A DNA stretch of 64,000 bases from contig CALXPL010000007.1 in the NCBI GenBank assembly GCA_944390275.1, forward strand, positions 29,595 through 93,594, given 5' to 3'. How positions within the stretch are numbered: position 1 is the stretch's first letter; every line of letters starts with the position of its first letter. Of the stretch, positions 33,131-55,396 are shown piece by piece. Origin of the DNA: an uncultured Alphaproteobacteria bacterium. GTDB lineage: Bacteria > Pseudomonadota > Alphaproteobacteria > RF32 > CAG-239. The notes beneath the pieces are model-generated. The model made no database searches and had not been told where the DNA came from. It saw only the letters and a list, made by a program, of their open reading frames with translations. Made by a program: the position numbers and the translations under genes.

Positions 33131-33150
33131 TGATAAGAATTAAGAAAGAA

Positions 33151-33630
33151 TTATTTTTTGACATAGCTGATTTCTTTGTCATAGATAATAATTTCTTTAC
33201 CGTTTTTCATACCGGTAGTTTTCGTTTCCTGATACCAAACATAATCAGGATGTTCAGGCAACATAGGCACGTAATTTCCGTCTTCATTTTTGAACATATC
33301 CAAATCATCAAGGATAATCGGGTTAACGTTACTAGGTTCCACGATTTTTTCCTCAATAATTTTAATACTGCGATAGCGTAAAATCCCTTTGATGGCAATA
33401 GTCAATCTATTGTCTATTGTTTCATCATAATCAGGAGGAGTAACGACCCATTCAAGAACGAGTTTATGTTGCCCATCGATTTTAGGATTTTTACTGATAA
33501 GTTCGATTTCTGTTTGCACCAAATCGACTTTCCATGCAGATAAATCTTTGTTAGGATGTTCCGAGTTTGAGACGGCAATTTCTTTTACGGCGTTAGCATT
33601 GGCATAACGCAAAAAGTTTTTAAATTTCAT
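33151..33630 (-). CDS. Hypothetical protein (ORFan cassette 1)
   Basis: 159-aa ORF with its own promoter and terminator; no recognisable family. Confidence 0.75.
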   Translation of the reverse strand: MKFKNFLRYANANAVKEIAVSNSEHPNKDLSAWKVDLVQTEIELISKNPKIDGQHKLVLEWVVTPPDYDETIDNRLTIAIKGILRYRSIKIIEEKIVEPSNVNPIILDDLDMFKNEDGNYVPMLPEHPDYVWYQETKTTGMKNGKEIIIYDKEISYVKK

Positions 33631-33701
33631 ACAATTATAGAATTAAATTAATAATAAAGAAACATGAAAAAGAATATAGGCCTTGTCGAAAATTTTGTCA
33701 A
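33631..33701 (-). promoter_or_regulatory. Sigma70-type promoter and SD-less AT-rich leader
   Basis: TTGACA-17-TATATT, then ...TTATTAATTTAATTCTATAATTGT-ATG. Confidence 0.7.
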
Positions 33702-33795
33702 TACATATTTTTAAGAGAAAACTTGCAATTTATAAGAGAATAATGTAAACTCAAAAGGCTAAAGATAAAGGAATAGAAAAACAAAATCACAAAGA

Positions 33796-34911
33796 ATGAA
33801 GAAAAAAATAAGAAATAGTATTATTGGATTAATGTTTATTTTAAGCCCGATAAAAAGTGAAGCCTTAAATATTGCGGTAATAGCACCGCAGGAAGGGGTG
33901 TATCAAAAGTTTGGACAAGAAATAATATCAGGAGTACAAACGGCGGTAAATCATATTAATGCCAGCGGAGGCTTAAGAGGGGAAAAAATAAATTTAATTA
34001 CGGTAGATGACCAGTGCGATAATAATATTGCCATATCCACAGCACAAATGTTGGCTGTCAATATATCCGAAGCAGATAAGGTGGCCTTGGTGATAGGTCC
34101 GTATTGTTCAAATTTGTTGAAAGAAGTAACGGATATATATGGCAGAGCGAAAATTTTTGAGATTATTCCGATAGCGGTAAATAGTAAATTATTCACGGAT
34201 AAACCGGAAGGTTTAGTTACATTAGCGGGTTATACCGAGCAGCAAAGTGCCGATTTTTATCAATATTATAAGCAGCGTTTTTCAGGAGAAAAGGTAGCTC
34301 TGATATACGATAGTAATGATAGAGATACAATAGACATGGCAGCAGCGTTGCAGCAAGAATTTCAAAAGAACGGCAAATTAGATTTATTACAAGCCTATAG
34401 TTATGCTTCATTTGAGGATATTGAAGCCATGGCGGAAGAAGTATTAAAAGATAAACAGCATATTGCCTATATATTAGGCAATTCAGAACAAACGGCAGAG
34501 ATAGCCTCAGAATTGAAAGAAGAAAAGAAGGACTTTATAATCTTTACAAACAAATATGTCGCCCAAGAGGATTATGATAAAATAATGGGAAGGCAAGCAG
34601 ATGATATGTATTATTTTGGATTACCTTCATTAAAAGACAACCCGGATTTTGCGGGGACATTGGTTCATTTAAGACTGGCAGGAGTAGAGCCGGAAGGATT
34701 GGGCGTTTACGGCTATTCGGCAGTAAAGTTATGGGAAGAACTGGTAAAGGGGGCAGATTCTTTTGAATACGAAGAATTGGCAGCGGAATTAAAAAAAGGC
34801 AAGATAAGAACGACATGGGGAGAAGTAGAATTCAAGGACGGAGCTCCGGCAGATTCATTAAATTTCAGTATATACAAAAGGAATAACGGACAATATACAC
34901 AAGTCTATTAA
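33796..34911 (+). CDS. Branched-chain amino acid ABC transporter substrate-binding protein (LivK-like)
   Basis: IAVIAPQEG, AVNHINASGGLRGEKINLITVDDQCD, VIGPYCS. Confidence 0.88.
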   Translation: MKKKIRNSIIGLMFILSPIKSEALNIAVIAPQEGVYQKFGQEIISGVQTAVNHINASGGLRGEKINLITVDDQCDNNIAISTAQMLAVNISEADKVALVIGPYCSNLLKEVTDIYGRAKIFEIIPIAVNSKLFTDKPEGLVTLAGYTEQQSADFYQYYKQRFSGEKVALIYDSNDRDTIDMAAALQQEFQKNGKLDLLQAYSYASFEDIEAMAEEVLKDKQHIAYILGNSEQTAEIASELKEEKKDFIIFTNKYVAQEDYDKIMGRQADDMYYFGLPSLKDNPDFAGTLVHLRLAGVEPEGLGVYGYSAVKLWEELVKGADSFEYEELAAELKKGKIRTTWGEVEFKDGAPADSLNFSIYKRNNGQYTQVY

Positions 34912-34979
34912 TAAATATTTTAATCTAAAAAAAAGTGATTATACTAGGTGCAACATTAACAAAGATAAGGTAAAAAGAA

Positions 34980-35447
34980 ATGGCAGGAAGTATAAATAAA
35001 GTGATTTTGGTCGGCAACTTGGGAGCAGACCCGAAAGTCAGCAATACACAAAGCGGCACAAAGATTGTTAATTTGAGTGTAGCCACAACGGACACATGGA
35101 AAGACAAAACGTCTGGAGAAAGAAAAGACAGAACGGAATGGCACCGCGTTGTCATTTTCAATCCGCAATTAGCCGACATAGCGGAAAGATATCTCCGTAA
35201 AGGTTCAAAAGTTTATATTGAAGGACAGTTACAAACACGAAAATGGGAAGACAATAACGGTTCTGAAAGATATACCACCGAAATAGTTTTACAAAATTTC
35301 AGCGGCAATTTAACGCTTTTGGATGGTAAAGGAGACGGCGTTCCGGCGGGAGGCAATGATGTCTTTTCAGGTTCACCGACAGGAGGAGGCTGGGATAGCA
35401 GTTCGGCAGCCCCGTCAGCGGATTTGGATGATGATATACCGTTTTAA
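34980..35447 (+). CDS. ssb: Single-stranded DNA-binding protein
   Basis: MAGSINKVILVGNLGADP, TEWHRVVIF, C-terminal DLDDDIPF. Confidence 0.99.
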   Translation: MAGSINKVILVGNLGADPKVSNTQSGTKIVNLSVATTDTWKDKTSGERKDRTEWHRVVIFNPQLADIAERYLRKGSKVYIEGQLQTRKWEDNNGSERYTTEIVLQNFSGNLTLLDGKGDGVPAGGNDVFSGSPTGGGWDSSSAAPSADLDDDIPF

Positions 35448-35459
35448 GAAAAAAGAAGG

Positions 35460-35484
35460 AAGCACTCTGAGGAGTGCTTTTTTT
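35460..35484 (+). terminator. ssb terminator
   Basis: AAGCACTC-tgag-GAGTGCTT followed by a T-run. Confidence 0.85.
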
Positions 35485-35495
35485 GTAAGAGATTA

Positions 35496-35566
35496 TTGAC
35501 AAAAAAAGAAAATGTGCTATAAAAAAGCAAGCAAACAATTATTGTATCACATTTAAATTAATTATT
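35496..35566 (+). promoter_or_regulatory. Sigma70-type promoter and SD-less leader
   Basis: TTGACA-16-(TGc)TATAAA; leader ends TTTAAATTAATTATT-ATG. Confidence 0.7.
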
Positions 35567-36769
35567 ATGGGACTGAGAAAATTATTAGAACAAGCAAAGA
35601 CAAAAGACAAGATAAACAAGTGTCCGATGTCTGATTATGATGAAGCAATACTGTTCAAGATTCTAAAAGATGCCTATTTTGACAATATCGGATTTTGGGT
35701 TTTTGACTTTCGTCCGTATCAAGAGGATAAAAAGGTTAATCTGAAAAATGTTGAGATTTTTGTAGATTTGTATATTCAAGCACAACATTTGGAAAAATCA
35801 CTGTTATTAGGCTCTCCACGGCCGCATTTTATAGGGAAGATTGAAAATCTTCCAGAATTAAAACAATTCGGATTATCGGATTATTGGATAGAAATAAGCT
35901 GCCAAGACAGTAAAAATCTAGATGTTGATGTTTTAACATTATTGCCACAATTTATCGTAGGTTCACAGACGTTAAGTGATGAGCGATTTGTCAGAACATT
36001 TGATATATACCATTTCTTCATGAAGGTCGGAGAACAAAAGGAGAAGCAAGGCAAAGATTTTCTCCCGATGTTAAGATTGTTCAAAACAACGGCGCAAGAA
36101 TTATCAGATCTTGAAGAAGAGAAACATTATGAAGTTATTACGGCAGACGAAAACCTCTATAAGTATCTTCGCAGAGAAAGAGGGGAAAGTGAAAATTTCG
36201 TAACTTTTTTAAGAGATATACCGAGATTTTCACAAATACAATATGAAATAGGCGACTTTATAAGCCAAGATAACGGAATTTATAAAGACGTTAAAAAAGC
36301 GGTTATTGAAGGTCAAGAAGTATATGTTGCACCTGTTGAAACACCTCAAGCCGGAGATATCATAAAAGGAATTATGCTGGGAGAGGATCTCTATTTAAAT
36401 CTTTTGTACGAGGGACAACAAACTCTTTTTTATAAAGCAGAGAAACCACTCAGCGCAGAAGAGAAAAAGGTTCTTCATTTGCTTTGGGAAGATTTTTATG
36501 ATGTTATGGAGAAACATCAAAAGAAAATTGATAGTCAACTCCACAAATTAGGAATGCAATCACCACGAAAGCAATTAGAGGAAGAAAATAAAACATTGGT
36601 TATTAGTCGGAATGCGGATTATTTTCAACCTTTTGAGAATCAAAAAGATAAAGGTGTTATTTCCAAGACAGAAATAGTGAATACAGGCGTAAGCAAAGAA
36701 ATTCTGCAAAGGTTCGCTTTCATGATGGTTGGTACGGAATTGAACGGTTATTTCTTCAACAAGAAATAA
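35567..36769 (+). CDS. Hypothetical protein (ORFan cassette 2)
   Basis: 400-aa ORF between ssb and gyrA; no recognisable family. Confidence 0.8.
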   Translation: MGLRKLLEQAKTKDKINKCPMSDYDEAILFKILKDAYFDNIGFWVFDFRPYQEDKKVNLKNVEIFVDLYIQAQHLEKSLLLGSPRPHFIGKIENLPELKQFGLSDYWIEISCQDSKNLDVDVLTLLPQFIVGSQTLSDERFVRTFDIYHFFMKVGEQKEKQGKDFLPMLRLFKTTAQELSDLEEEKHYEVITADENLYKYLRRERGESENFVTFLRDIPRFSQIQYEIGDFISQDNGIYKDVKKAVIEGQEVYVAPVETPQAGDIIKGIMLGEDLYLNLLYEGQQTLFYKAEKPLSAEEKKVLHLLWEDFYDVMEKHQKKIDSQLHKLGMQSPRKQLEEENKTLVISRNADYFQPFENQKDKGVISKTEIVNTGVSKEILQRFAFMMVGTELNGYFFNKK

Positions 36770-36781
36770 AGAAAACACGGT

Positions 36782-36836
36782 ACGGCTCCCGAAGAATTTT
36801 GCTTAAAAGCGAAATGAAACAGGAGCCGTTTTTTTT
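36782..36836 (+). terminator. Terminator-like hairpin with long structured loop
   Basis: ACGGCTCC...GGAGCCGT followed by T7; 32-nt interior. Confidence 0.7.
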
Positions 36837-37014
36837 GCCCGTAGAGCGCAAGGACGTTAACGAATTAGAAAACAAAAAAAAGGGAAATCAATTTTAAGGC
36901 GGTTTTTTTGAGCATAGAGAGCAAATCGTGTTTATAAGTCGGTAAAAAAGCTGGTTAAAGCGAAGAGAAGTTGTTATATTAGGAGCAGTTTAGCAGATAA
37001 TGAAAAGGAAAAAG

Positions 37015-39834
37015 ATGACAGAAGAAACAGAAGAAATAAGCTCTCCGGTTAATGCGGAAGGAATAATGCCGGTAGAAATTTCGGAAGAAATGCGACGTTC
37101 TTATTTAGATTATGCCATGAGCGTAATTGTCGCAAGAGCGTTGCCGGATGTTCGCGATGGATTGAAACCGGTTCACCGCCGTATTATTTATGGCATGTAT
37201 GAAAACGGTTATGATTATAATAAACCTTATAGAAAATCGGCACGTATCGTCGGAGACGTTATGGGTAAATATCACCCCCACGGCGATGCCGCCATATATG
37301 AATCCATGGTTCGCATGGCTCAACCCTTTTCAATGCGTTTGCCATTGGTTGATGGTCAAGGAAACTTCGGTTCAATGGACGGAGACAGCGCGGCAGCCAT
37401 GCGTTATACGGAAGCCCGTTTAGAAAAAGTAGCCCATGCGTTAATTGAAGATATTGATAAAGATACGGTTGATTTTGTACCGAACTATGATGAAACCTTG
37501 CAAGAGCCATCGGTTTTACCGGCAAGATACCCCAATTTATTGGTAAACGGTGCCAATGGTATTGCCGTTGGTATGGCAACGAATATTCCGCCGCACAATT
37601 TGGGAGAAGTTCTTGATGCGTGCTGTGCTTATATTGATAATCCGGAAATAAGCATAGATGACTTAATAAATATTGTTCCGGGACCTGATTTCCCAACCGG
37701 AGGATTGATTTTAGGTTACGGCGGAGCAAAGTCAGCATATTATACGGGTCGCGGTTCGGTAATGATGCGAGCCAAATGCTCGATAGAAGAGCTAAGAAAA
37801 GATAAAGAAGCGATAATCGTTCATGAAATTCCGTATCAGGTTAACAAGGCGGCTATGATAAGCAAGATAGCCGAATTGGTAAAAGATAAAAAGATAGATG
37901 GAATATCAGAAATTCGCGATGAATCAGACCGCCATGGTGTTCGTGTTGTTATAGAAATCAAAAGAGATTTCCAACCGGATGTTATTTTAAACCAGCTCTA
38001 TAAATTTACACCGTTACAAACCAGCTTTGGAATGAATATGTTGGCAATCAACGGCGGTCGTCCGATGATGATGAATTTAAAAGACATCATATCGGCCTTT
38101 GTCAATTTTAGAGAAGAGGTAATTCGTCGCCGTACCATATATGAATTAAACAAAGCGCGTGATAGAGCGCATATATTGGTAGGATTGGCAATCGCTGTTG
38201 AAAATCTTGATCCGGTAATTGAATTAATCCGCACTTCACCCAGCCCTCAAGAAGCCAAAGATGCATTATTATCCAAGGCATGGCCGGCAGGAGAGGTTGA
38301 AGCATTGGTACAGTTGATAGATGAACCGGATAGAAAAGTAGAAAACGGTTATTATCATTTATCGGAAGACCAAGCCCGTGCAATATTAGATTTAAAATTG
38401 CAAAGATTGACCGGCTTGGAGAGAGACAAAATTCATCAAGAATTATACGGTTTAGGTGATGAAATTAAAGAATGTCTTTCAATTTTGGCTTCACGCGAAA
38501 AATTATTTGGCATAATGAGAGATGAATTCATAGCCATAAAAGATGAATATGCAACACCACGCCGTACAAAAATTGAAGATATAGAATATGATACGGACAT
38601 TGAATCTTTGATTCAAAGAGAAGAAATGGTTGTTACGGTAACCGAAGCCGGATATATCAAGCGCGTTCCGTTAAACGCTTACAAAGCACAGAAGCGCGGC
38701 GGTAAAGGTAAGGCGGGAATGGCAACCAAGGAAGAAGATTTCGTAACACGTTTGTTTGTTGCTTCAACACACACACCTGTTTTGTTCTTTTCTTCTAAAG
38801 GTCAAGTTTATAAAATGAAAGTTTATAAACTTCCGTTAGGTTCACCAACCTCGAAAGGCAAACCGTTTATTAATTTGTTACCATTAAGCGATGGCGAAAA
38901 CATTACAACCATTATGAAACTTCCAGAGAATGAGGAAGAGTGCAACAATATGTCCATAATGTTTGCGACCTCACAAGGAAATGTTCGCCGTAACTCTTTG
39001 ATGGATTTTGTAAACGTACAATCCAACGGTAAGATAGCGATGAAATTGGATGAGGGTGACAAATTGGTAAATGTCCGCATTTGTACGGAAGCAGAAGACG
39101 TCATGCTTGCGGCCAAGAGCGGAAAATGCATTCGTTTTCCTGTAACGGAAGTAAGAATGTTTGTTGGTCGAAACTCGACAGGTGTAAGAGGAATTAAGTT
39201 GGCTTCGGGAGATGAAGTTATTTCTATGTCGATATTAAACCATAGTGATGCCACATCAGAAGAAAGAGACGAGTACGGACGCGTTGTTTCAGCCATGAAG
39301 AGAATACAAGCGGAAAGAGGCGATGATACACCGGTCAAATTTGAAGAATGCGGAGTAGAATTAAGCGTCTTGACGGCTGAAAAATATGCAGAAATGAAAG
39401 CCAACGAGCAATTTATCCTTTCAGTCACCTCAACAGGTTATGGCAAGCGCACCTCGGCCTATGAATATCGAATCACGGGTAGGGGAGGTCAAGGAATAGC
39501 CAATATGGAGATGTCGGCAAGAAATAAAGAGATAGTCAGTTCGTTCCCGATAGAAGATGACAATCAGTTAATGATGGTAACGGACGGAGGCAAATTAATC
39601 CGCATGCCGGTAGGCGACATACGCATAGCCGGAAGAAAGACCCAAGGGGTTATTCTTTTCCGCACGGCAGAGAACGAGCGAGTAGTTTCGGTAACGAAGC
39701 TGGAAGCGGATGCCGGAGATGACGAGGAATTGGAAGAAGAAACCGGTTCTGAAGTCTTAGGCGATAGTGCGGTAGATAATGATGATTTGGTATCGGATGA
39801 AGTAACCGAGCCAAGCGTTGATCAAGCAGATTAA
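37015..39834 (+). CDS. gyrA: DNA gyrase subunit A
   Basis: [31 protein letters not shown], GyrA-box QKRGGKG, acidic tail. Confidence 0.99.
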
Positions 39835-39847
39835 CGAACTCAAAAAT

Positions 39848-39879
39848 AAAAAAACGAGGAAAAAATCCTCGTTTTTTTT
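39848..39879 (+). terminator. gyrA terminator
   Basis: AAAAAAACGAGGA-aaaaa-TCCTCGTTTTTTTT. Confidence 0.88.
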
Positions 39880-39880
39880 G

Positions 39881-39954
39881 TTGCAAATTTTGTCGAATAT
39901 GGTAAAGTAAAACGAAATTTTTATATTATTAATCAAAATAAATTATTATGAAAA
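39881..39954 (+). repeat. Promoter/leader direct repeat, copy 1
   Basis: TTGCAAATTTTGTCGAATATGGTAA...ATTATTATGAAAA; 65/74 identical to 40547-40620 by manual alignment. Confidence 0.92.
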
Positions 39955-40493
39955 CAATTACGCATGAAAAAGACGCTTACAAAAAATTTAAAACAGTAGC
40001 AAATTTGATTAATGGGCAAGTTTATGCCAAGAGTATGAAATGCAAAAGTTATTGCGGAGATTTTCTTGTCGGAAAAAACTACAATTTATGGGTTGCGGAA
40101 AGTTTGGATATTGATACAAAGCAGACCATGCTCTGTGTAATGATAATAGGAGACAAAATCAATGTTGTCTATGAACTTCCGGAATATATTTTTGAAGACG
40201 TAAGCCGAGCAGAAGATGTGAAGGGTTTTACCGATGAAGAGGGTAAGAAGTATATCAGGATCGAAAGCAAGTATGATAAAGATATAATTTTCAAAGATGA
40301 AGATTATATCAGATATGAACTGGCATGGGTTATAACGCATTGTTTGTATTTCAAAAAAGGAGAAGTCAACATTCGTTTTGAAGAAGGAACAGCCTATTTA
40401 AGCGGAAAAGTTATACAAGGCAATGAAGCTGAGTTATTCCGGTTGGCATGTATGGAAGAGCTAGGATGGACAATTAACTTTGCCATAGAGTAA
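39948..40493 (+). CDS. Hypothetical protein (ORFan cassette 3)
   Basis: 181-aa ORF with own promoter and terminator. Confidence 0.8.
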   Translation: MKTITHEKDAYKKFKTVANLINGQVYAKSMKCKSYCGDFLVGKNYNLWVAESLDIDTKQTMLCVMIIGDKINVVYELPEYIFEDVSRAEDVKGFTDEEGKKYIRIESKYDKDIIFKDEDYIRYELAWVITHCLYFKKGEVNIRFEEGTAYLSGKVIQGNEAELFRLACMEELGWTINFAIE

Positions 40494-40505
40494 TAAAAGC
40501 GTCAC

Positions 40506-40543
40506 AAAAGCAAAGATTCAACAAGAAGAATCTTTGCTTTTTT
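40506..40543 (+). terminator. Terminator between cassettes 3 and 4
   Basis: AAAAGCAAAGATTC/GAATCTTTGCTTTT stem followed by T's. Confidence 0.88.
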
Positions 40544-40546
40544 ATA

Positions 40547-40620
40547 TTGCAAATTTTGTCGAATATGGTAATGTGAAGCGAAATTACATTATTATTAATT
40601 AAAATAGATTATTATGAAAA
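40547..40620 (+). repeat. Promoter/leader direct repeat, copy 2
   Basis: First 25 bp identical to 39881-39905; same 67-nt distance from -35 to ATG. Confidence 0.92.
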
Positions 40621-41456
40621 GAGTAAATTTTTCAGAAAAAGGAGTAAGCAAAGAGTATAAAAACTCTAAGTTTATCGAATTAATTGGCAAGCCGACTTTT
40701 CGTCGTCTTATCTGTTGCGAGAGTTGGGGGGCAATTAATGGTGTCGGAGAAGACATTTTTGTTAAAGGGCAAAGCTACGACATCTGGATATGCAATGTCT
40801 ATAAAAAGAAGGAAGGTACCTTTGCTCATTATGTAGCTGTTCCCAAAATTATTGAGGAAAAGGGACATACCGAAAAATATCGTTATATTCTGCCGCAAAC
40901 GATATTTGGAAAGATTGATGATCGGGAAGAAGCAATTACAACACAGATAGAAGTAAACAAGCCGAAATTAGTTGTCAAGGATGAGCATATAGAGGAGTTG
41001 GAAACGGAAATTTGCAAGGAAAAATTTAAGTTAATTCCAGATTTCAATAATAGTTTTTTGCTCATTCCATCGTGGTATTTAAACAAAGAAGAGGTAGAAC
41101 AATACATCAAAGCAAAAGATGTTGAAGTTTTTTCTTCATCCACGGACAAGAAAACAAAATCAGCGGCTTATTGGTTAAAGTTATATCCACATCTTCCGCA
41201 GAAATATATGTTGATACCAAGAATATTCGGAACATCAACAAAAAATATGTTTATCGCATGGGAGATAAGGAGAAAGATGAACAAAAAAACGACATTAGCA
41301 ACTTACTTCAATATCTATAACGGATGTGAGGATTGCAATTGGCAAGATTTGGATATTCAATATCCGCTAGGCAACAACCAAAAGCAAGCTCAAGTAAAAA
41401 GGTTATATGTCCGGTATAGCAAGAAAAAAATTAATGTAAGTTTCAAAAGAATCTGA
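40614..41456 (+). CDS. Hypothetical protein (ORFan cassette 4)
   Basis: 280-aa basic ORF with own promoter and terminator. Confidence 0.8.
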   Translation: MKRVNFSEKGVSKEYKNSKFIELIGKPTFRRLICCESWGAINGVGEDIFVKGQSYDIWICNVYKKKEGTFAHYVAVPKIIEEKGHTEKYRYILPQTIFGKIDDREEAITTQIEVNKPKLVVKDEHIEELETEICKEKFKLIPDFNNSFLLIPSWYLNKEEVEQYIKAKDVEVFSSSTDKKTKSAAYWLKLYPHLPQKYMLIPRIFGTSTKNMFIAWEIRRKMNKKTTLATYFNIYNGCEDCNWQDLDIQYPLGNNQKQAQVKRLYVRYSKKKINVSFKRI

Positions 41457-41460
41457 AAAG

Positions 41461-41499
41461 AAGCGAAACCCACAAGGAACATCTTGTGGGTTTTGCTTT
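41461..41499 (+). terminator. Terminator after cassette 4
   Basis: AAGCGAAACCCACAAG/CTTGTGGGTTTTGCTT stem. Confidence 0.8.
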
Positions 41500-41579
41500 A
41501 TGAGAAAAGGAATTTTGTAAGGCTTGCAAATCAAAAAATATGACTTTATATTAAAAAAAGTAAGTTGAGGAGAAAAAGA

Positions 41580-42122
41580 ATGAAATTATATATATTTCGG
41601 CACGGGCAGACAGAGGGAAACCGTTTGCAAATATGTCAGACGGCGGATTTTGAGTTGAATGAGGAAGGAATAAAGCAAGCAGAACGTTTAAGAGATGATT
41701 TGGCCAAGATAAATTTGCCGATAATTTATGCCAGTCCGTTTAAGAGAGCCGAAATGACAGGAAGAATAGTTGCTTCTGCACACAAGACACCGGTAGAAAT
41801 ACGAGAAGGATTGGAAGAAATGCGCTTTGGTCAGGCGGAAGGCATGCTTGAAGCCGAAATGCCCAAAAAGTTTGGCGAAGAATTGTATCAACAACTGATA
41901 AATGTTCCCGAACCGCATTGGGACAGCAAAATACCGGAAGGAGAGAGCAAGAGGGAAGCCTTAGAGAGATTTAAGCGTAGTCTGGATAAGATAAAAAAGA
42001 TATGTCCCTATGACACAGCCGGAGTCGCAAGTCATGGACACATTATGAGAATTTTTTATTATGACCATTTTAAAGAAGATAAAAAATTTGAGAATTGTGA
42101 ATATTTTGAACTAGAAATATAG
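41580..42122 (+). CDS. Histidine phosphatase family protein
   Basis: FRHGQT, YASPFKRA, LEEMRFG, VASHGHI; GAGGAG RBS. Confidence 0.92.
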   Translation: MKLYIFRHGQTEGNRLQICQTADFELNEEGIKQAERLRDDLAKINLPIIYASPFKRAEMTGRIVASAHKTPVEIREGLEEMRFGQAEGMLEAEMPKKFGEELYQQLINVPEPHWDSKIPEGESKREALERFKRSLDKIKKICPYDTAGVASHGHIMRIFYYDHFKEDKKFENCEYFELEI

Positions 42123-42131
42123 GAGAGCAAA

Positions 42132-42473: not shown

Positions 42474-42481
42474 AAAAGAAG

Positions 42482-42545
42482 TTGACATTTTTGTCTAAAA
42501 GGAGTAAAAAAGCAAAGATAGTAAATATAATTAAAATTTATAATT
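42482..42545 (+). promoter_or_regulatory. Sigma70-type promoter and SD-less leader
   Basis: TTGACA-TTTTTGTC...-TAAAAA (17-nt spacer); leader ends AATTAAAATTTATAATT-ATG. Confidence 0.65.
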
Positions 42546-43385
42546 ATGGAAAAAATTAATTTTTCAGCCAAAGAATGGCAGTGTGCAGAAAAAGTGTTAA
42601 ATGAATTTTCTTACCATACGGACTGCCTCCGCAATGGTCAGTTAACCGTGGAACCAAAATATATTGTTTGCATGGATGACGACGCAAGCTCGGCATTTTA
42701 TGCGGCAAAAGTCTATTTTGCCTGTAAAAAACAATATAAACATGAACCGTTGGTTCTATGTGTCGGCGGAAAAGGGATGCTGTCAAAATATCTGAATTAT
42801 GACGGCTGTTCCGAAGGAGAAAAATTGGCGCATGTTTGTCGCCGATTAGGTGTAAAAAGAGTAATGGTTTTGGACAAAGGCAACAATACGGGAGCCAATG
42901 TTAAAGAAATCATTGAAAACACGGAAAAGGGAGCCCCGATAATTTTTTGCCCGACCAAACGTTTAAGTTTACGTTTGGAACGCACGGTAAAATTCAGTAC
43001 GACACAATTTCCCGGAACAGAACCGTTGAACGCATGGTTCTATGTCGCACCGGAAACATTGGAAGATATGTTGCAAGCGCACAACGGCAAGGGACTGGCC
43101 GGAGGGTTAGCCTTGTTGTCGGAGTTAGCTTCGATTTATGAAAGGTTGCGGAGATACAAAAACATCTTTAATGCACCTTTGGAAAAGAAGCCCTCACAAG
43201 AGGGAGTAGAAGCCGCGGCATATCTGGAAAAACACTATCCGATAAAAATAAAACGCTTACCTTTATCTGCGCCGATACAATTTGTTAAAATGTATTGGGC
43301 GGTGATGACAGGGAAGAAAGCCGTTCAAGAAGACTTGGAAAAACATGTCGAAGAATGGCAAACCCGCGTTGAAGAAGGATTGTAA
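42546..43385 (+). CDS. YdcF/DUF218-like protein (cassette 5)
   Basis: LCVGGKG...SEGEKLAHVCRRLGV...DKGNNTGANVKE resembles the DUF218 core. Confidence 0.6.
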   Translation: MEKINFSAKEWQCAEKVLNEFSYHTDCLRNGQLTVEPKYIVCMDDDASSAFYAAKVYFACKKQYKHEPLVLCVGGKGMLSKYLNYDGCSEGEKLAHVCRRLGVKRVMVLDKGNNTGANVKEIIENTEKGAPIIFCPTKRLSLRLERTVKFSTTQFPGTEPLNAWFYVAPETLEDMLQAHNGKGLAGGLALLSELASIYERLRRYKNIFNAPLEKKPSQEGVEAAAYLEKHYPIKIKRLPLSAPIQFVKMYWAVMTGKKAVQEDLEKHVEEWQTRVEEGL

Positions 43386-43389
43386 AAAT

Positions 43390-43427
43390 AAAAAAAAGGT
43401 TGGATTATTATCCAACCTCTTTTTTTT
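43390..43427. terminator. Bidirectional terminator
   Basis: A-run, AGGTTGGAT/ATCCAACCT, T-run, between convergent genes. Confidence 0.85.
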
Positions 43428-43431
43428 GAGG

Positions 43432-44895
43432 TTAATTTGCAGAAACCAAACCATGGCTAAAGGCATAGATAGCCCAAAGAGCAATAATAACAAAAAGCCA
43501 AGCAAGTTTCTTTTCATCTTGAGAAAAGACAGGTTGGTCAGGAGCATTTTGTTTTCGTGCTTTAATAAAGACAGGAATGCCTAAAGCTAAAATAATGACC
43601 GCCAACATGGAATATTTAAGTCCGGCAGCATAGATTAGCCAAACAGCATAAGCCGAGCCGGCAATAGCTGTAAATAAAGCGATAGAACGTGAGGTTTCTG
43701 ATTTCTGAGGATATTCGCCGTCTGTGCAGAGTTTCCATAAATAAATGCAAGACATTAAATAAGCCGGTAAGACCATAACGCTGGTAATGTTAAGCATAAC
43801 TGACCAAGCGTTATTGGCAAAATAAACCAGGAACATACAAATTTGCATGGCGAAGCTGGTAATCCATAAGGAAGCGGAAGGCGAACCGACAGCATTTTCT
43901 TTCATGAATAATTTAGGAAAAGTACCGTTTTGAGCGGCAGCAAAAGGGATTTGAGCGGTTACAATAGTCCAAGCCAACCAACTACTTAAGACGGCAATAA
44001 GCAAGCCGATATTCATCAACCAAGCACCTTTTTTACCGATAATAAGTTCTAAGATACCAACGGTTGAAGGGTTAGCAATATTTTTGAGTTCGTCTTGATG
44101 CATATATCCGTAAGGAAGCATAGAGAGAAGGGCATAGATGATAAGACAAGAGATAAAGCCGAGAAAAGTAGCTTTACCGATATCTTTATAATCTTTAGCT
44201 TTGTCAGAGAGAACGACAGCGCCTTCAATACCGATAAAGGCCCAGAGTGTAACCATCATCGTACTTTTGATTTGAGTTCCGAGACTGCCTAAACTAGCCA
44301 AAGTTTTCGTAGATTCCCCCCAAAAGTCAAAATCAAATTTATCGGAATTAAAGACCACAGCCATAATTAAAATAAAAAGAAAGAGGGGAACAATTTTCAA
44401 GATAGTACCGATAAGATTAACGATACTAGCTTGCTGAACACCTTTAAGGATCATAAAATTAAATCCCCAAATAATAACGGAACCGCCGATAATTGAAGCA
44501 AAATTATTCCCACCGGCAAAATAGGGAGGAAAGAAATAATTAAGAGCATCCATTGTGATAACGGCATAACTGACATTACCGAAGACTTGGCAGAGCCAAT
44601 AAGACCAACCGATAGTAAAACCGGCATAAGCCCCAAAACCGGCACGGCTGTATGAGTAAATACCGGTAGTTAAATCAGGTTTCGTTAAAGAGAGAACCGA
44701 AAAAGTTTTGACAATAAAATAAATACCGATACCGGTAATGACCCAAGAGAGGAGAACGGCACCGGCAGAAGCACCGGCAGCCATATTTTGAGGCAAGCTG
44801 TAAATACCGCCGCCTAACATAGAGCTGACGACGATACAAGCCAAAGCGAAAACGCCTAGGCCTTTTTTGTTGGATTGAGAATTATTTTTTTGCAT
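43432..44895 (-). CDS. aaxC: Arginine/agmatine antiporter (APC family, chlamydial AaxC-like)
   Basis: SSMLGGGIYSLPQNMA, FTIGWSYWLCQVFGNVSYAVITMDALNYFFPPYFAGGN, TLWAFIGIEGAVV. Confidence 0.85.
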   Translation of the reverse strand: MQKNNSQSNKKGLGVFALACIVVSSMLGGGIYSLPQNMAAGASAGAVLLSWVITGIGIYFIVKTFSVLSLTKPDLTTGIYSYSRAGFGAYAGFTIGWSYWLCQVFGNVSYAVITMDALNYFFPPYFAGGNNFASIIGGSVIIWGFNFMILKGVQQASIVNLIGTILKIVPLFLFILIMAVVFNSDKFDFDFWGESTKTLASLGSLGTQIKSTMMVTLWAFIGIEGAVVLSDKAKDYKDIGKATFLGFISCLIIYALLSMLPYGYMHQDELKNIANPSTVGILELIIGKKGAWLMNIGLLIAVLSSWLAWTIVTAQIPFAAAQNGTFPKLFMKENAVGSPSASLWITSFAMQICMFLVYFANNAWSVMLNITSVMVLPAYLMSCIYLWKLCTDGEYPQKSETSRSIALFTAIAGSAYAVWLIYAAGLKYSMLAVIILALGIPVFIKARKQNAPDQPVFSQDEKKLAWLFVIIALWAIYAFSHGLVSAN

Positions 44896-44945
44896 GATAA
44901 ATTCCTGAAAAGAAAGCCCCGAAAGGAGATTCGGGGCTAGAGAGA

Positions 44946-45533
44946 TTACAAAGAAGCCGGAGCGGCATGTTCAAAATTTAAGAAACCCATAGCGGTTAAG
45001 CAATAACCGAATTGTTCAGTAATATTGATGTAATTATGCCACATTTGGAATTCGGAATGTTGTTCAACACCGCGTAGTTCAAGTTCATGACGCAAAGATT
45101 TGCGGAGCCACATTTCAGAATGACCTTTAGCAATTTCATCATCAATATGAGTATCAAAGTATTCAACATATTCAGCCGCCCAACCGCCGATAAGTTCGCC
45201 TTTTTTATTTTTTCCCCAGCAAACGCCGATACCAGTAGCAATAGCTTTGTGGTCATCACGACTTGCTCCGTTAGCCGCCATAATGACTTCCAGTACGGCA
45301 CCATGTTTGAATTGTTTTACGATTTTGTCATTGAGAGGAACGATTTTACCGAAAAGTTCTTTAGGCAAAACAGAAGTATAAGGAACAATGTTAAAGTTTT
45401 CGATACGGGCTTGCAACAAGGCAGAATCATAACAAAAAGTTTCAAAAGGTTGAGGAGGGATACCTTCATTAGCTTGTCCGGCACCGCCGGTAATAAAAGC
45501 AAAAGTAGGATAACGAACACCTTGAGTAGTCAT
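44946..45533 (-). CDS. aaxB: Pyruvoyl-dependent arginine decarboxylase (chlamydial AaxB-type)
   Basis: [34 protein letters not shown] with self-cleavage site T53-S54; [11 protein letters not shown]; 195 aa. Confidence 0.93.
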
Positions 45534-45706
45534 AATATTTCTCCCTAAAATGTTAAAAAATAAAAATTACTACTTTGATTTAATCATTTAAGAATTGATT
45601 TCAGGCGGAAGAAATATCCACAGCAAAATATTTTTTTTGAAAAGAGTAGAAATTTTGAAGAATTAGAATACATTATAAGAAAAGAATTAAAGTAAAGGAA
45701 AAAGAA

Positions 45707-46879: not shown

Positions 46880-46911
46880 AGAATAATCACCATAAGTCAT
46901 AGGAAAGACAA

Positions 46912-50088: not shown

Positions 50089-50094
50089 AAAAAG

Positions 50095-50126
50095 AAAACC
50101 GATAAAGAAAATTTATCGGTTTTTTT
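50095..50126 (+). terminator. Terminator after RND permease
   Basis: AAAACCGATAAA/TTTATCGGTTTT followed by T's. Confidence 0.8.
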
Positions 50127-50229
50127 GTTGAATTTAATAAAGATGATTAAGATAAGTCAAAGAAGATATAAAAAAACAACCCATATCCATAAAGAAAAGA
50201 ATAGGGTTGTTTTTTTCAAACTGTAAGAT

Positions 50230-50877: not shown

Positions 50878-50962
50878 AAGACATAATCTCCATAAATTAA
50901 AGTTTACCTATAAAATAATATAGGTATTGAAATTTAAAAATACACTAATAAGAGAGAGAAAA

Positions 50963-51949
50963 TTATTTTTTTCTTTCGGGTTTGATTCCGGTTAGGATAA
51001 AATCAACTCTTTCTTCGGGAGAAAGGCGTTTAGGATAATATTTATCAACTTTTTTCAAAACTTTACCCAAGCCGATTCCGTTAGCAATCTGTACAGCCAA
51101 ACCGGGGCGAGCATTAAGTTCAAGCATCATCGGTCCTTTGTCGGCATCAAGGACAATATCGGCACCGAGATATCCTAAACCGGTCATTTCATAAGCCTTT
51201 GCTCCGATTAAGAGATGTTCGCGCCAAAAAGGAACTTCTATTTTAGATAAATCGGCACCGGTATCCGGATGATGAGTAATAGGCATATTGCGCATAACGG
51301 CTTTAAGGGTACGTCCGGTTTTAACATCAAGCCCGACCCCGACAGCTCCTTGGTGAAGATTGGCACGTCCGCCTGAAGCAGCTGTAGCCAAACGAGTCAT
51401 AGCCATAACGGGATAGCCTTTATAGACAATAACGCGTACGTCAGGAATACCTTGATAGCTATAATTATCAAAGATATGGCTGAAATTGACCATTTCTTCA
51501 ATCACGGCAGTATCATATTGACCACCTAAACTATACAATCCGCTGAGGGTGTTAGAAATATGTTGATAAATTTCTTTATAAGAAAGAATCCGTCCGGAAG
51601 GAGTTGTAAAGGTATTTAAGTCATGAGATTTTATCACAAGGACACCTTTTCCGCCGCTTCCGTGAGCGGGTTTAATAACGAAGGAATTCCAGTCTTTAAC
51701 CAGCTCTAAAAGTTTGTTAACTTCGTGTTGGTATTCGATAATTCCGATGAGGCGAGGGGTATTAATCCCATATTGCAGAGCCAAGGCTTTAGTCTGTACT
51801 TTATCATCGACCAAGGGATAAAGGTTACGTTTGTTAAGTTTGGCAATAAATTTAAAATTACGGCTATTCATACCGAGAATACCGGCATTACGGAGTTCGG
51901 CGGGAGAAGCAAAATATTTTGACAGCCATTGAAACATATTCAAAAACAT
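50963..51949 (-). CDS. Alpha-L-glutamate ligase-like ATP-grasp protein
   Basis: GILGMNSRN, LVDDKVQTK, VIKPAHGSGGKG, GIPDVRVIV, ANLHQGA, LELNARPGLAVQIAN. Confidence 0.92.
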   Translation of the reverse strand: MFLNMFQWLSKYFASPAELRNAGILGMNSRNFKFIAKLNKRNLYPLVDDKVQTKALALQYGINTPRLIGIIEYQHEVNKLLELVKDWNSFVIKPAHGSGGKGVLVIKSHDLNTFTTPSGRILSYKEIYQHISNTLSGLYSLGGQYDTAVIEEMVNFSHIFDNYSYQGIPDVRVIVYKGYPVMAMTRLATAASGGRANLHQGAVGVGLDVKTGRTLKAVMRNMPITHHPDTGADLSKIEVPFWREHLLIGAKAYEMTGLGYLGADIVLDADKGPMMLELNARPGLAVQIANGIGLGKVLKKVDKYYPKRLSPEERVDFILTGIKPERKK

Positions 51950-51951
51950 CC

Positions 51952-53484
51952 TTATTTAACAAGAGGGCGAAAACGTTTTAATTCCGTTAAGCGGTAGCCG
52001 GTATAAGTTCCCAAGAGCATAACAAGGAACAAAATAACCAGATTCAACTCGTTAAAAGCAAACATAATATAACGAATGGTTTCGTTGCAAATAATAAAAT
52101 AAGTAAGGATAGCGGCAATCATACTGAATAAAATTTGTCTTCCGGCATTAAAAGGACCTTCTTCTTCCCAAGTAATGGAAGCGCGCTCAATAACCCAAGC
52201 CATAATAATGATAGGGAAGGAAGCAGCGGAAGCGGTAATATTTGTATTGAAGTGGTAACCATAAACAGTCATAGCCTGAATGATGAGAATGACACAAATA
52301 ACCACGGCGGATATTCTCGGAACGAGGAGCAGGTTCAGTTTTGAGAAGAGCGTACGAATCAGCAAACCGATAGAAATAATAATAGCAAAACAAATGAGTC
52401 CGGGGATAAGACCTGTTTTCACCAAAGCCATAGCCAAGAGCATAGGAGTAAAAGTACCCATCGTTTGTAAACCGATAACATTACGGATAAGAGCGATAAC
52501 CAGAATAGCCAGAGGGAAAATCATGAGCCATTTTATTGTATTTTGTTCATTAACGGGTAAGTTATAGATAGAATTTTCAAAATTTTTGCTGTCATCGGCA
52601 ATTTTTGCACGTTTTCCGGCTAAGTCGAAAGAAGTTGTAACCGATTTGAGAACGGAGAATTTAACGGAAGAATCAAAGCCGCCTTCAAGGTCGAGCAAAG
52701 AATTTCCGCCGCGTTGAAAGATAATAAAGTCAGCCGGCAAACCGATTTGACCGGTAGTAAGATTATACAATTTCCAACGGTTGCCGATATAGGCTTCTAA
52801 CATGAGGTCGGGAGCAAAAGATTTTTTATCTTCAGCCAATTTAATACCGCGAGCCAAACGAGAAGGAATCCCTTTATAAGAGAGCAAACGTTCGATTGTC
52901 TCGGCAACGATTTTCGGTGTTTTTTTCATGGGTAAAAAAGCAACGACGGTTGGTTCGGGTGGAACTTGATTAAACAAGCGAATAAGTTGTTGCGGTAAGT
53001 CGCCTTGAAATTTTTTAGCAAGTTCGAGAAGTTCGTTAGCGATTGCTTCGGTTTGTTCGCTGTAAACAGGTTTTTCGGGAGTTGGAGGAAGAGGGGCTTC
53101 AACTTTTCCTTTAGCCGATTCGTTATCAAAAAGGAGAATACGATAATAGACGTTTTGCAAACCATCGCGAGGTTGAGAAGTTAAGATGAGTCTTCCGTTT
53201 TCTTTAGAAGATTTATACCCAGCAGCCACAATATCTTCATCAAGAATTTTATAATCATCGCTGCTGACGGGAGTAGCCAAAGAGATTTTGACGGGAGAAC
53301 CATCCGCTTCATATTGAATATTAGCTTCAATAGTCCAGACATTAGTTTTGTCTTTTGGAGCGAAAGAAAACCCCCAGTAGCGGACTTTATAATAAGCGGA
53401 ATAAGCGGCATAAGCAACAGAGAACAAGAGCATCAAAGAAATGATAAAACGTACGGTACATAATCTTTTAAGTCTGTAAAGCAT
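51952..53484 (-). CDS. Inactive transglutaminase domain fused to 7TM (UUP1-like) membrane protein
   Basis: Periplasmic domain followed by RNVIGLQTMGTFTPMLLA, LLLVPRISAV, FPIIIMAWVIER, LGTYTGYRLTELKRF. Confidence 0.88.
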   Translation of the reverse strand: MLYRLKRLCTVRFIISLMLLFSVAYAAYSAYYKVRYWGFSFAPKDKTNVWTIEANIQYEADGSPVKISLATPVSSDDYKILDEDIVAAGYKSSKENGRLILTSQPRDGLQNVYYRILLFDNESAKGKVEAPLPPTPEKPVYSEQTEAIANELLELAKKFQGDLPQQLIRLFNQVPPEPTVVAFLPMKKTPKIVAETIERLLSYKGIPSRLARGIKLAEDKKSFAPDLMLEAYIGNRWKLYNLTTGQIGLPADFIIFQRGGNSLLDLEGGFDSSVKFSVLKSVTTSFDLAGKRAKIADDSKNFENSIYNLPVNEQNTIKWLMIFPLAILVIALIRNVIGLQTMGTFTPMLLAMALVKTGLIPGLICFAIIISIGLLIRTLFSKLNLLLVPRISAVVICVILIIQAMTVYGYHFNTNITASAASFPIIIMAWVIERASITWEEEGPFNAGRQILFSMIAAILTYFIICNETIRYIMFAFNELNLVILFLVMLLGTYTGYRLTELKRFRPLVK

Positions 53485-53504
53485 AAGAGAGACCTTATAT
53501 AAAA

Positions 53505-54047
53505 TTAGTTAAGAGTGTTGGAAAGCGAAGTATCGACGATAGCGCGTCCGGTTAAGATATTTCGACCGATAAGGGCTTGGTATTCAAATTTTTCGCGGTC
53601 AGCGAGGTTAAAACGGACACCGGTAATAATTTCTTTTCCGAATTTGACTTCCATATCGACGGCATAACGCTTTTCATGTTCATTAATGCGTTTAATATCA
53701 ACGACTTTTTGGATTTTCTTTTCAAAATGGTGCATTTCACCGTTTTCGCGATTAACAAGGTCAAAAGCGACCCATTTTTCTCCGTCGCGCTCGAATTTTT
53801 TAATATTTTTGGCATCAATGGACGACATTTCGGCACCGGTATCAATGCGAGCTTGAAAAGGTGTCTTCATTGGAAGAAAATAGATAGGTTCGGTTTCACC
53901 GATAATGCCTAAAGAGTGTCGAGGAGTTTTTTTAACTTCGACAGCGGGGACGATTTCGGGGCGCACGGTCTGCTGAGTTGAGCAGGCAGAGAGAAAGGCA
54001 AAAGAAAACATTGCAAAAAACATATAAATATATTTCATTTTTTTCAA
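53505..54047 (-). CDS. RimK-associated 'ATP-dependent Zn protease'/retropepsin-like lipoprotein
   Basis: Lipobox FLSAC, ARIDTGA, FNLADR, ALIGRNIL. Confidence 0.88.
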   Translation of the reverse strand: MKKMKYIYMFFAMFSFAFLSACSTQQTVRPEIVPAVEVKKTPRHSLGIIGETEPIYFLPMKTPFQARIDTGAEMSSIDAKNIKKFERDGEKWVAFDLVNRENGEMHHFEKKIQKVVDIKRINEHEKRYAVDMEVKFGKEIITGVRFNLADREKFEYQALIGRNILTGRAIVDTSLSNTLN

Positions 54048-54172
54048 TTCTTTAATAACTTGTTAAACAAATTCTAAGTAATTTAGAAACAAATTCATAG
54101 AAATGTAAAGTTAAATTTGTTTCTCCTGTGAACAGGAGTTGATAACTTATGTTGTAAAAGGTACTTGAAGGA

Positions 54173-55084
54173 ATGAACATAAAAGAGGCAGAGAGGAAAG
54201 CAAAGATAGCAAGGATACGCATGTATAGAAAAATAAGACAGATAAAAGCGTATCGACGAAAAGTTGAAATAAATGCACTCGCGGCGAAGATGTTGACCTA
54301 TATAAGCATACCGGCATTTGCGGCATGCACACCGTTAACCGCGGCAGAAAATACATTAACGGATGGAAGTTTAGGATTTACGACATCACATGATTTGAAG
54401 ACATATTCCATGATGTTGACACTTATGGGAAAATATGATGTGAAGACGGCGGTACAAGATATTGTTCAGAAAGATAACGAAGAATTTTTACAAGCATTGC
54501 ATGAACAGTATAATGATATAAAGAGTAAAGGAGCGGGAAGACGAGCCTATGTTCAGAGTTTGTTTGGCAATATAAACTATTGTAACATGGCGGTTATAAG
54601 AGTTTTGAAACAAACAAGTTCGGATTATATGAATCAATTTTTGGAAGAAATGGAAAATCCGGCACTATGTTCGGCATTTGTAAGTTATGTGCAAAAAAAC
54701 TATCCGGATTGTATTCGTTATGAAAGAAATTTGAGTACGGATAAATTGCATAAAGGAGATATTGTCGTAACCCAAGTTCCGAGAGGAAGGACGGCAAGAG
54801 GAAATACCGCTACGGGAAATCATACCGTAACGTATGAAGGAGAAAAGTTTTTGAGTTTTAACTCGGAAAGCAAGTATGATGTGAGCGGAAAAGGCTATAT
54901 AATTAGTATGAATAAAATTCGCGAAAAGGCCTTGGAAGAAAAAATAAAGGGGATGAGCAAACAAGAAACGGTTTCTTATTTAGTAGGTCTGTATGCCAAG
55001 AAAGATAATAAGACACAAGAAAAAGTAACGAGTAACGACCAATATAAGATTGCTCAAGTAGCGTTAAGACAACGGGCAAGATAA
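54173..55084 (+). CDS. Hypothetical protein, possible NlpC/P60/CHAP-like cysteine hydrolase
   Basis: NYCNMAV...GDIVV...NHTVTY ordering; AAGGA RBS. Confidence 0.5.
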   Translation: MNIKEAERKAKIARIRMYRKIRQIKAYRRKVEINALAAKMLTYISIPAFAACTPLTAAENTLTDGSLGFTTSHDLKTYSMMLTLMGKYDVKTAVQDIVQKDNEEFLQALHEQYNDIKSKGAGRRAYVQSLFGNINYCNMAVIRVLKQTSSDYMNQFLEEMENPALCSAFVSYVQKNYPDCIRYERNLSTDKLHKGDIVVTQVPRGRTARGNTATGNHTVTYEGEKFLSFNSESKYDVSGKGYIISMNKIREKALEEKIKGMSKQETVSYLVGLYAKKDNKTQEKVTSNDQYKIAQVALRQRAR

Positions 55085-55092
55085 AAAAATAT

Positions 55093-55168
55093 TTGACAAA
55101 TCTTTGTCCAAGATGTAGGTTTCAACTAATTAAGTATCATTATGTTTAACATTATAATTCTTTAAGCT
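55093..55168 (+). promoter_or_regulatory. Sigma70-type promoter and SD-less leader
   Basis: TTGACA-17-TAGGTT containing the GACAAA-TC-TTTGTC inverted repeat. Confidence 0.6.
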
Positions 55169-55396
55169 ATGGACAAACAGAAAGTTATGGAAAATTTATT
55201 TCCGGATTATGTCGAAACCATCCGTTCTCGCAACCTTCAACCTTATAAGGGGACGATAATATTGCCTTGCCGCCACCGTGTTGAACATTGCCTGATAATT
55301 TCGATACATGAACTTCTTCATTTGGTGTATGAAGAAGCCAGCGAAGAAAAGCACAGTTATGTGTATCGTGGCGAGCAAGTCATAGCGGAACAGTAA
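55169..55396 (+). CDS. Small hypothetical protein (ORFan cassette 6)
   Basis: 75-aa ORF with own promoter and terminator. Confidence 0.65.
   Translation: MDKQKVMENLFPDYVETIRSRNLQPYKGTIILPCRHRVEHCLIISIHELLHLVYEEASEEKHSYVYRGEQVIAEQ

Follow-up and report, generated by a model that had tools for sequence, protein, structure and literature searches.

We analysed a 64,000-nucleotide stretch of contig CALXPL010000007.1 (assembly GCA_944390275.1), here designated the window, from an uncultured alphaproteobacterium, and noticed that six of its open reading frames (ORFs; ORF159, ORF400, ORF181, ORF280, ORF279 and ORF75) share an architecture composed of a predicted strong promoter, a leader made almost exclusively of A and T and devoid of a Shine-Dalgarno (SD) sequence, a single ORF and its own terminator. 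Our reading, to which we attribute a probability of roughly 0.6, is that they form a vertically inherited class of resident monocistronic genes, in which translation initiation would be SD-independent and probably take place via ribosomal protein S1. The original prediction, made from the sequence of the window alone, had described this architecture and considered two explanations for it, an integrase-less system of gene acquisition or shuffling and a co-regulated, S1-dependent class of genes; all six ORFs were found where it had placed them (Table 1).

The window has a guanine-cytosine (GC) content of ~37%. The best relative of its GyrA (37015-39834) is from "uncultured Azospirillum sp. UMGS63" (94%), followed, at 77-85%, by proteins of several "Alphaproteobacteria bacterium" metagenome-assembled genomes and of Candidatus Scatocola, which are uncultured low-GC gut Alphaproteobacteria. 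The GyrA relatives point to a low-GC, RF32-like gut alphaproteobacterium as the host.

Promoter, leader and terminator architecture

Upstream of the six ORFs we identified exact TTGACA or TTGCAA hexamers, at -71, -71, -67, -67, -64 and -76 from the ATG (ORF159, ORF400, ORF181, ORF280, ORF279 and ORF75, respectively), within the 64-76 nt originally proposed. The -10 boxes, 16-17 nt after the -35 box, are weak, two of them being of the extended TGn type, and a generic promoter scan catches only one of the six promoters (33701-33673), the other five being missed because of these weak boxes. Promoters at -64 to -76 imply a predicted 5' untranslated region (5' UTR) of 27-40 nt, and A/T makes up nearly all of the 25-35 nt that precede each ATG. 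A leaderless transcript driven by an ATG-proximal TATAAT was considered and rejected, since the hexamer ends only 1-3 nt from the ATG, which is too close.

The absence of SD sequences was also borne out. The best duplex between the six leaders and the anti-SD sequence of the 16S rRNA has an energy of +0.4 to +2.9 kcal/mol, that is, no pairing, whereas most neighbouring genes, for which SD sites had been indicated as well, reach -4 to -8 kcal/mol with GGAG, AGGA or AAGG visible. The region from -30 to +20 around the start codon is little structured in the module genes, by a small margin (mean folding energy of -1.3 kcal/mol, against -2.6 kcal/mol in 35 other genes; p = 0.05). Each of the six ORFs is followed by a stable hairpin and a T-tract (folding z = -4.2 to -8.7), in line with the claim that each gene has its own terminator. 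No Rfam match and no tRNA were found when known RNA elements and tRNA integration sites were sought.

In three units, as had been noted, the -35 box starts close to the upstream terminator, namely 0 nt after it in ORF181, 5 nt after the hairpin in ORF280 and ~10 nt after the ssb T-run in ORF400. Nevertheless, uvrA (33055-33103, minus strand) and a histidine-phosphatase gene (41524-41580, plus strand) also have consensus-like promoters in a terminator-then-TTGCAx layout, and their predicted leaders, of ~10 and ~20 nt, start at or near an SD sequence (AGGAG/GAGGAG). Because these two genes have the same layout, the packing of promoters behind terminators is a general trait of this compact genome, and the distinctive part of the six units is the SD-less A/U leader alone.

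A seventh unit was identified in the same genome. Contig NODE_346 of ERZ24773345 (97.6 kb; loci L082, L160 and L165) shows no difference from the window in any of the genes compared and carries, ~5 kb upstream of the window start (L165, 4688-5431, minus strand), a 247-aa ORF with no Pfam match, preceded by the -35 box TAGACAAAA and by an SD-less leader, AATTATTGTTCCAC...TTTTTTTAATT, similar to that of ORF400 (AATTATTGTATCAC...).

Recurrence of the architecture beyond chance

We defined the leader strictly and independently of the reader, as 24 nt with no more than one G/C, directly preceding an ATG that opens at least 60 codons. In 297 kb of clade DNA eight sites correspond to this definition, and seven of the eight have an exact TTGACA or TTGCAA at -63 to -75, where our estimate of the chance expectation is ~0.04 per leader site; in 1.1 Mb of other proteobacterial loci there was no such A/T-leader site. 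The leader and start region of four of the six units constitute the largest direct-repeat family at 30-58 kb of the window, and the best window-wide matches to the 46-nt leader/start of ORF280 are those of ORF279 (37/46), ORF181 (32/46) and ORF400 (30/46), above a background maximum of 29. Local alignments of the 5' modules (promoter and leader) have a mean z of 3.2 between modules, against 0.6 between core regions and 0.3 between modules and core regions (p = 5e-5 and 5e-7).

The leaders also seem to have a sequence signature, ATTATT(AA)/TATAATT, which is real but soft: ATTATT is present in 12 of 17 independent leaders (the 95th percentile of shuffles being 9), and TTATTAA and TATAATT in 8 of 17 each.

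Conservation in the ORF279 family

ORF279 belongs to a clade-wide family (31 clusters). Its orthologues in eight other species, with 42-63% identity and in differing neighbourhoods, all have a TTGACA or TTGCAT between -55 and -76; their A/T leaders are all SD-less, most of them include ATTATT(AA), and no anti-SD pairing was found in these orthologues either. At the level of sequence comparison, promoter and leader being kept in differing neighbourhoods shows that the architecture belongs to the ORF279 gene itself, is conserved and is inherited vertically.

Five of the six products had been described as ORFans and the sixth, ORF279, as DUF218-like. The former stands, as no family match was found; in fact, none of the six ORFs had a match in Pfam or NCBIfam at E <= 0.01. 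For ORF279 the assignment is indirect, as the protein itself has no match to DUF218 (PF02698) even at E <= 10, and two of its homologues do match, L012:10062-10970 (E = 1.6e-6, 28.5 bits, cut-off 27.6) and P0037 (precomputed). The predicted structure of ORF279 is confident (predicted local distance difference test, pLDDT, of 90) with a Rossmann-like alpha/beta core, and no significant neighbour of the model was found in the PDB.

The genes around the ORF279 family differ in each species (L168 and L170-L175, around position 10001), including an RND pump, MacB, an autotransporter, def and an acetyltransferase. This would mean either very low synteny in the clade or relocation of the stand-alone unit.

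Residency of the genes

Across eight distinct strain-level contexts, ORF159, ORF400 and ORF181 are at unchanged positions whenever a contig is long enough to include them. Four contigs are long enough for ORF280 and ORF279, which are likewise in place in all four, and the same applies to ORF75 in seven contexts. These contexts were retrieved by look-ups with the exact ssb and ORF75 proteins, indexed in 124 and 105 collection blocks, and no swapped or empty allele was found at the six sites in the 8 + 7 contexts. GC content and GC content at third codon positions (GC3) of the six ORFs are those of core genes, the AT-rich part being only the 30-40 nt leader. Within the species, the ratio of non-synonymous to synonymous substitutions (dN/dS) of the module ORFs is 0-0.23, similar to that of their neighbours; we used this comparison because dS is saturated between species, where the between-species dN/dS was dropped and ORF159 and ORF280 have the same dN as livK. 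Orthologues in L001 have 69% (ORF159) and 38% (ORF181) identity.

We were not able to identify any sign of a mobilization machinery: the terminators have no common sequence, there are no flanking repeats and no common 3' repeat, and no recombinase or integrase domain was found by Pfam among the 53 ORFs of the window. Mobile or newly acquired cassettes are not supported by these comparisons; the genes are resident and under purifying selection. The idea of an integrase-less acquisition or shuffling system is not supported, in view of the same sites within the species, the core-like GC3, the low within-species dN/dS, the absence of a recombinase and of a common 3' sequence, and the promoter and leader that the clade-wide ORF279 family keeps; the original prediction had itself named the presence of the same genes at the same sites, with neither empty nor swapped alleles, as the observation that would speak against shuffling, and this is what we observe within the species.

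The uvrA/livK, ssb/gyrA and gyrA-downstream junctions differ in other species, being either empty or occupied by non-homologous or barely homologous ORFs (as in L012, where a weak homologue, 25%, occupies the junction of ORF400), many of which carry a similar 5' module; gene order is generally poorly conserved in this clade. The possibility of one conserved module whose ORF was swapped at ssb/gyrA (window versus L001) was rejected, the alignment being weak and out of register (z = 2.2).

Genes that carry the architecture

The architecture is associated with lineage-restricted proteins, in line with an enrichment upstream of ORFans, for which a test had been suggested. In the window, all six module ORFs are without Pfam match, in comparison with 9 of the 47 other ORFs (hypergeometric p ~2e-4, calculated by hand). 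Among 114 called genes of seven other species, with the query family excluded, SD-less starts were observed in 4/29 genes without and 1/85 genes with a Pfam match (Fisher p = 0.015). Overall, the architecture would correspond to a minority class of roughly 5-12% of the sampled genes, mostly coding for lineage-restricted proteins.

The taxonomic distribution of some of these proteins is very narrow: only two representatives of ORF400, both >90% identical, were found in 1.84 billion clusters, only four homologue clusters of ORF280 among 5.8 billion proteins, and only seven of ORF159. The structure model of ORF280 was unusable (pLDDT 37.6). A PADLOC scan of the six ORFs for defence systems gave no match, and only ORF280 had a PHROG match, which is weak (phrog_35594, of unknown function, E = 3.7e-4).

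Probable SD-independent initiation on A/U leaders

We hypothesize that each gene would be driven by a strong promoter of the housekeeping sigma factor (TTGACAAA as the -35 box, often with an extended TGn -10 box), yielding a transcript with a 5' UTR of nearly only A/U, with no SD sequence and with the soft ATTATT(AA)/TATAATT signature, which would end at its own intrinsic terminator. On this unstructured A/U-rich leader the 30S subunit would be recruited, probably by S1, and translation would begin at the first AUG that is accessible, with no SD pairing. SD-independent initiation is most likely, because conserved and selected ORFs have no SD upstream; we infer that the promoters are active, that transcripts start at the predicted sites and that S1 and the unstructured leader have the proposed role. 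The likeness between modules would have originated partly from common constraint and partly from local duplication (ORF181, ORF280 and the 5' end of ORF279).

SD-independent initiation on unstructured A/U-rich 5' UTRs has been attributed to S1 (PMC5397173). Work on A/U-rich enhancers in Escherichia coli gave the same attribution. By analogy with E. coli, S1 may mediate loading on the A/U tract of the six transcripts. Published non-SD genes are weakly structured at initiation (PMC5397173), with which the module genes agree. The six units resemble such genes in the absence of anti-SD complementarity, the A/U-only leader and the weak structure of the start region, and the predicted 5' UTR would make them leadered as well. 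They are distinct in being a minority in a genome with GGAG-type core SDs, in their link to TTGACA promoters and lineage-restricted genes, and in a soft signature that persists across genera. The other explanation originally considered, a co-regulated S1-dependent class, stands in its sequence part: SD-less A/U leaders are conserved across orthologues, and co-regulation and dependence on S1 may be further properties of the class.

Several points weigh against our reading. Clade sampling amounted to ~0.45 Mb of partial genomes; gene calls beyond the supplied tables came from a longest-ORF heuristic; and promoters and 5' UTRs are predictions from sequence, with weak -10 boxes. The difference in folding energy is marginal, in an AT-rich genome that folds weakly everywhere. 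In the independent set, 25 of the 29 genes without Pfam match have a normal SD, so that lineage specificity does not explain the architecture. Finally, an unstructured A/U leader demands less specificity than is seen in the ATTATT(AA) signature and in the match of ORF280 and ORF279 (37/46), which extends into the coding sequence; both would be compatible with a dedicated factor or with a transfer of modules.

Alternative explanations

A dedicated factor is possible, although we regard it as unlikely. The six genes would then belong to a regulon, in which the factor (a DNA-binding repressor, a nucleoid silencer of the MucR/H-NS type, an RNA-binding protein or a small RNA) binds ATTATT(AA)/TATAATT at ~+8 to +25 of the transcript and co-regulates lineage-specific genes; the absent SD would be part of the control, which is compatible with SD-independent initiation. 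Such a regulon would account for a soft motif that is enriched beyond composition and persists in ORF279 orthologues of species in which the rest of the intergenic sequence cannot be aligned, and for the closer likeness of modules to one another than to the upstream regions of core genes; alphaproteobacteria do have MucR-type silencers of AT-rich DNA (PMC7710501). However, the motif has low information, is anchored to the -35 box no better than it is to the ATG (a promoter-anchored ATTATTAA motif, an impression obtained by eye, failed automated scoring) and has no palindromic symmetry. Consensus matches of Fur, CtrA and IHF in the leaders are not above shuffles, no regulator gene was identified, and the module ORFs are not AT-richer than the genome; with core-like GC and GC3 they do not correspond to the AT-richer acquired DNA targeted by xenogeneic silencers (MucR/H-NS-like). 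A palindromic operator over the -35 box (TTGACAAA..TTTGTC; TTGACA..TTTGTC), seen in 4-5 window promoters, was also rejected: it is not conserved in ORF279 orthologues and seems to reflect a promoter-spacer preference, the uvrA spacer being similar.

It is improbable, in our view, that promoter, A/U leader and first codons constitute a portable 5' module, read by a dedicated factor, whose partially duplicated copies would give rise to lineage-specific genes or capture them. ORF280 would illustrate this, with a 5' end taken over from the older ORF279 family: across the leader and the first nine codons, the two unrelated genes match at the 37 of 46 positions mentioned above, and the whole 5' module aligns with z = 8.2. 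If a transfer occurred, the 5' end of ORF280 would derive from ORF279 and not the reverse, because the N-terminus MEKINF is ancestral to the ORF279 family.

Quite improbable is a recombining repeat of the kind of the promoter-early stem-loops (PeSLs) of T4-type phages, in which promoter-leader and adjacent terminator would be portable and homologous recombination would duplicate, swap and capture ORFs. PeSLs are conserved repeats with a stem-loop within or overlapping the promoter, ending in SD and start codon (PMC2839356), and demonstrably mediate insertions and deletions between near-identical phages (PMC2839356, PMC4122927). The resemblance lies in a sigma70-consensus promoter beside a stem-loop terminator, preferentially upstream of ORFans (PMC2839356, PMC4122927), and in some signs of recombination between neighbouring copies. 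Whole-unit tandem duplicates are present in three lineages (ORF181/ORF280 in the window, where the 5' modules are 87% identical across 83 nt, 12955/13431 in L005 and 15088/15687 in L010). In L085 (18232-19898) ORF181 has a leader with exactly the ORF280-type sequence, suggestive of gene conversion between tandem modules, and this leader adjoins a three-gene insertion; ORF280 is frameshifted in this strain and called from an internal start (246 aa). The 5' match of ORF280 and ORF279, and the junctions of other species that are empty or occupied by non-homologous, module-bearing ORFs, would also suit such a repeat.

Nevertheless, the six units are in a bacterial chromosome, their terminators are unrelated and owned by the upstream gene, they have neither the SD nor the stem-loop within the motif, and the repeated sigma70 motif, although found mainly 5' of ORFans, is weakly conserved beyond the hexamers except in ORF181, ORF280 and ORF279; we do not assign them to the PeSLs. 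Strain-level shuffling was not seen in the 8 + 7 contexts. Homologous recombination between non-paralogous modules is unsupported because their identity is far too low (z = 0-3, the hexamer and a few bases). At ssb/gyrA, the window modules can hardly be aligned with those of L001. Composition is native, the strain-variable insertion has canonical SDs and no module, and, MEKINF being ancestral, the common 5' end of ORF280 and ORF279 would represent at most one old partial duplication. The variation observed seems to consist of local duplication and conversion events only.

The insertion between gyrA and ORF181, found in four of the eight strain contexts (L085 15077-18231; L086-L088), is a three-gene operon coding for Cys-rich, signal-peptide-bearing repeat proteins, with AAGGAG as SDs. 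Paralogues of these proteins (62% and 33% identity) are encoded in the window at 15844-17708 (minus strand), with a similar upstream GTTATATTAGAGTC element.

Two other types of single-ORF unit were compared. Phage morons are likewise single ORFs with their own promoter and factor-independent terminator between unrelated genes (for the term, see PMC7067206), but the six units are outside a prophage (neighbours uvrA, ssb, gyrA and recG) and their base composition is not deviant. A phage origin was rejected, given the single weak PHROG match and chance-like hits in viral contigs, where a scan with TTGACAAAA-N45-62-TATAATTATG returned 69 unrelated hits, mostly with an SD or no ORF. Integron cassettes are small single-ORF units too, often ORFans and sometimes arrayed; they are promoterless, end in attC and need an integrase and attI, whereas the six units have promoter and terminator, no common 3' repeat (no attC model was run) and no integrase in the window.

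That six lookalikes were picked among chance A/T runs and TTGACA-like hexamers of an AT-rich genome is hardly tenable and already largely refuted: promoter-like sites are, in fact, not clearly above shuffles (75 versus 59.5 +/- 8.4; 49 versus 39 +/- 6.1) and an nhmmer profile of the leaders is uninformative (E ~1-9 even for its own members), but the exact -35 box at a fixed distance, the conservation in ORF279 orthologues of eight species, the similarity of modules above controls and the replication of the no-Pfam association in an independent set all stand against it.

Features of the units and neighbouring loci

Table 1. Positions of the six units and of their parts in the window.
Feature	Position	Strand	Details
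ORF159 unit	33100..33701	-	ORF 33630-33151, 159 aa
ORF159 promoter	33701-33696 (-35); 33678-33673 (-10)	-	predicted; TTGACA; TATATT
ORF159 A/T leader	~33666-33631	-	includes ATTATTAAT and TATAATT
ORF159 terminator	33131-33100	-	hairpin + T-tract; continues directly into uvrA promoter TTGCAT
ORF400 unit	35496..36837	+	ORF 35567-36769, 400 aa; terminator 36782-36837
ORF400 promoter	35496-35501 (-35); 35518-35523 (-10)	+	predicted; TTGACA; TATAAA; leader ~35530-35566
gyrA terminator	39848-39880		-35 box of ORF181 directly 3' of T-run
ORF181 unit	39881..40547	+	ORF 39948-40493, 181 aa; terminator 40506-40547
ORF181 promoter	39881-39886 (-35); end 39908 (-10)	+	predicted; TTGCAA; extended -10 TGgTAAAGT
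ORF181 leader	~39915-39947	+	includes ATTATTAAT
ORF280 unit	40547..41499	+	ORF 40614-41456, 280 aa; terminator 41460-41499; tandem duplicate of ORF181 unit
ORF280 promoter	40547-40552 (-35); end 40574 (-10)	+	predicted; TTGCAA; extended -10 TGgTAATGT; leader ~40581-40613
ORF279 unit	42482..43427	+	ORF 42546-43385, 279 aa, divergent DUF218-like
ORF279 promoter	42482-42487 (-35); 42505-42510 (-10)	+	predicted; TTGACA; TAAAAA
ORF279 leader	~42517-42545	+	includes ATAATTAA and TATAATT
ORF279 terminator	43397-43427		common to convergent permease gene
ORF75 unit	55093..55442	+	ORF 55169-55396, 75 aa
ORF75 promoter	55093-55098 (-35); 55116-55121 (-10)	+	predicted; TTGACA; TAGGTT
ORF75 leader	~55128-55168	+	includes ATTATGTTTAAC and TATAATT
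ORF75 terminator	55399-55442		convergent with recG 3' end

Three neighbouring loci were observed in addition. Upstream of uvrA, the window contains a glycosyltransferase block of 25-30% GC (26152-30210; L081-L088, 1-5233), with DUF4422 and GT8 and a 363-aa protein with no Pfam match, whose content varies by strain (653 + 363 aa versus 301 + 946 + 371 aa versus others) and which looks like a variable surface-glycan locus. Next to ORF279 (43432-45533, minus strand), a gene for a pyruvoyl-dependent arginine decarboxylase adjoins an amino-acid permease gene, a pair that may constitute a decarboxylase/antiporter module and is absent from this position in L168 and present in L169. An operon at 50963-54047 (minus strand) codes for an ATP-grasp protein of the sugar-transfer type, a fusion of seven-transmembrane (7TM) and inactive transglutaminase domains and a RimB-like zinc protease.

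Implications

SD-independent initiation and stand-alone transcription units are already known, and no new mechanism of gene acquisition or type of mobile element is revealed by the six units. The new point is a modest one, namely the combination of strong promoter, A/U leader, absent SD and soft signature in a defined minority of mostly lineage-restricted genes, within a genome that has clear SDs in its core genes; across genera this architecture stays with the gene. Were the portable-module explanation true, the units would represent a chromosomal equivalent of phage PeSLs and show concretely how orphan genes may gain expression signals. If our preferred reading, that of resident genes with SD-independent initiation, is confirmed, the architecture would provide a sequence handle on a distinct expression class in uncultured bacteria that are common in the human gut, and a natural test case for the recognition of non-SD leaders.

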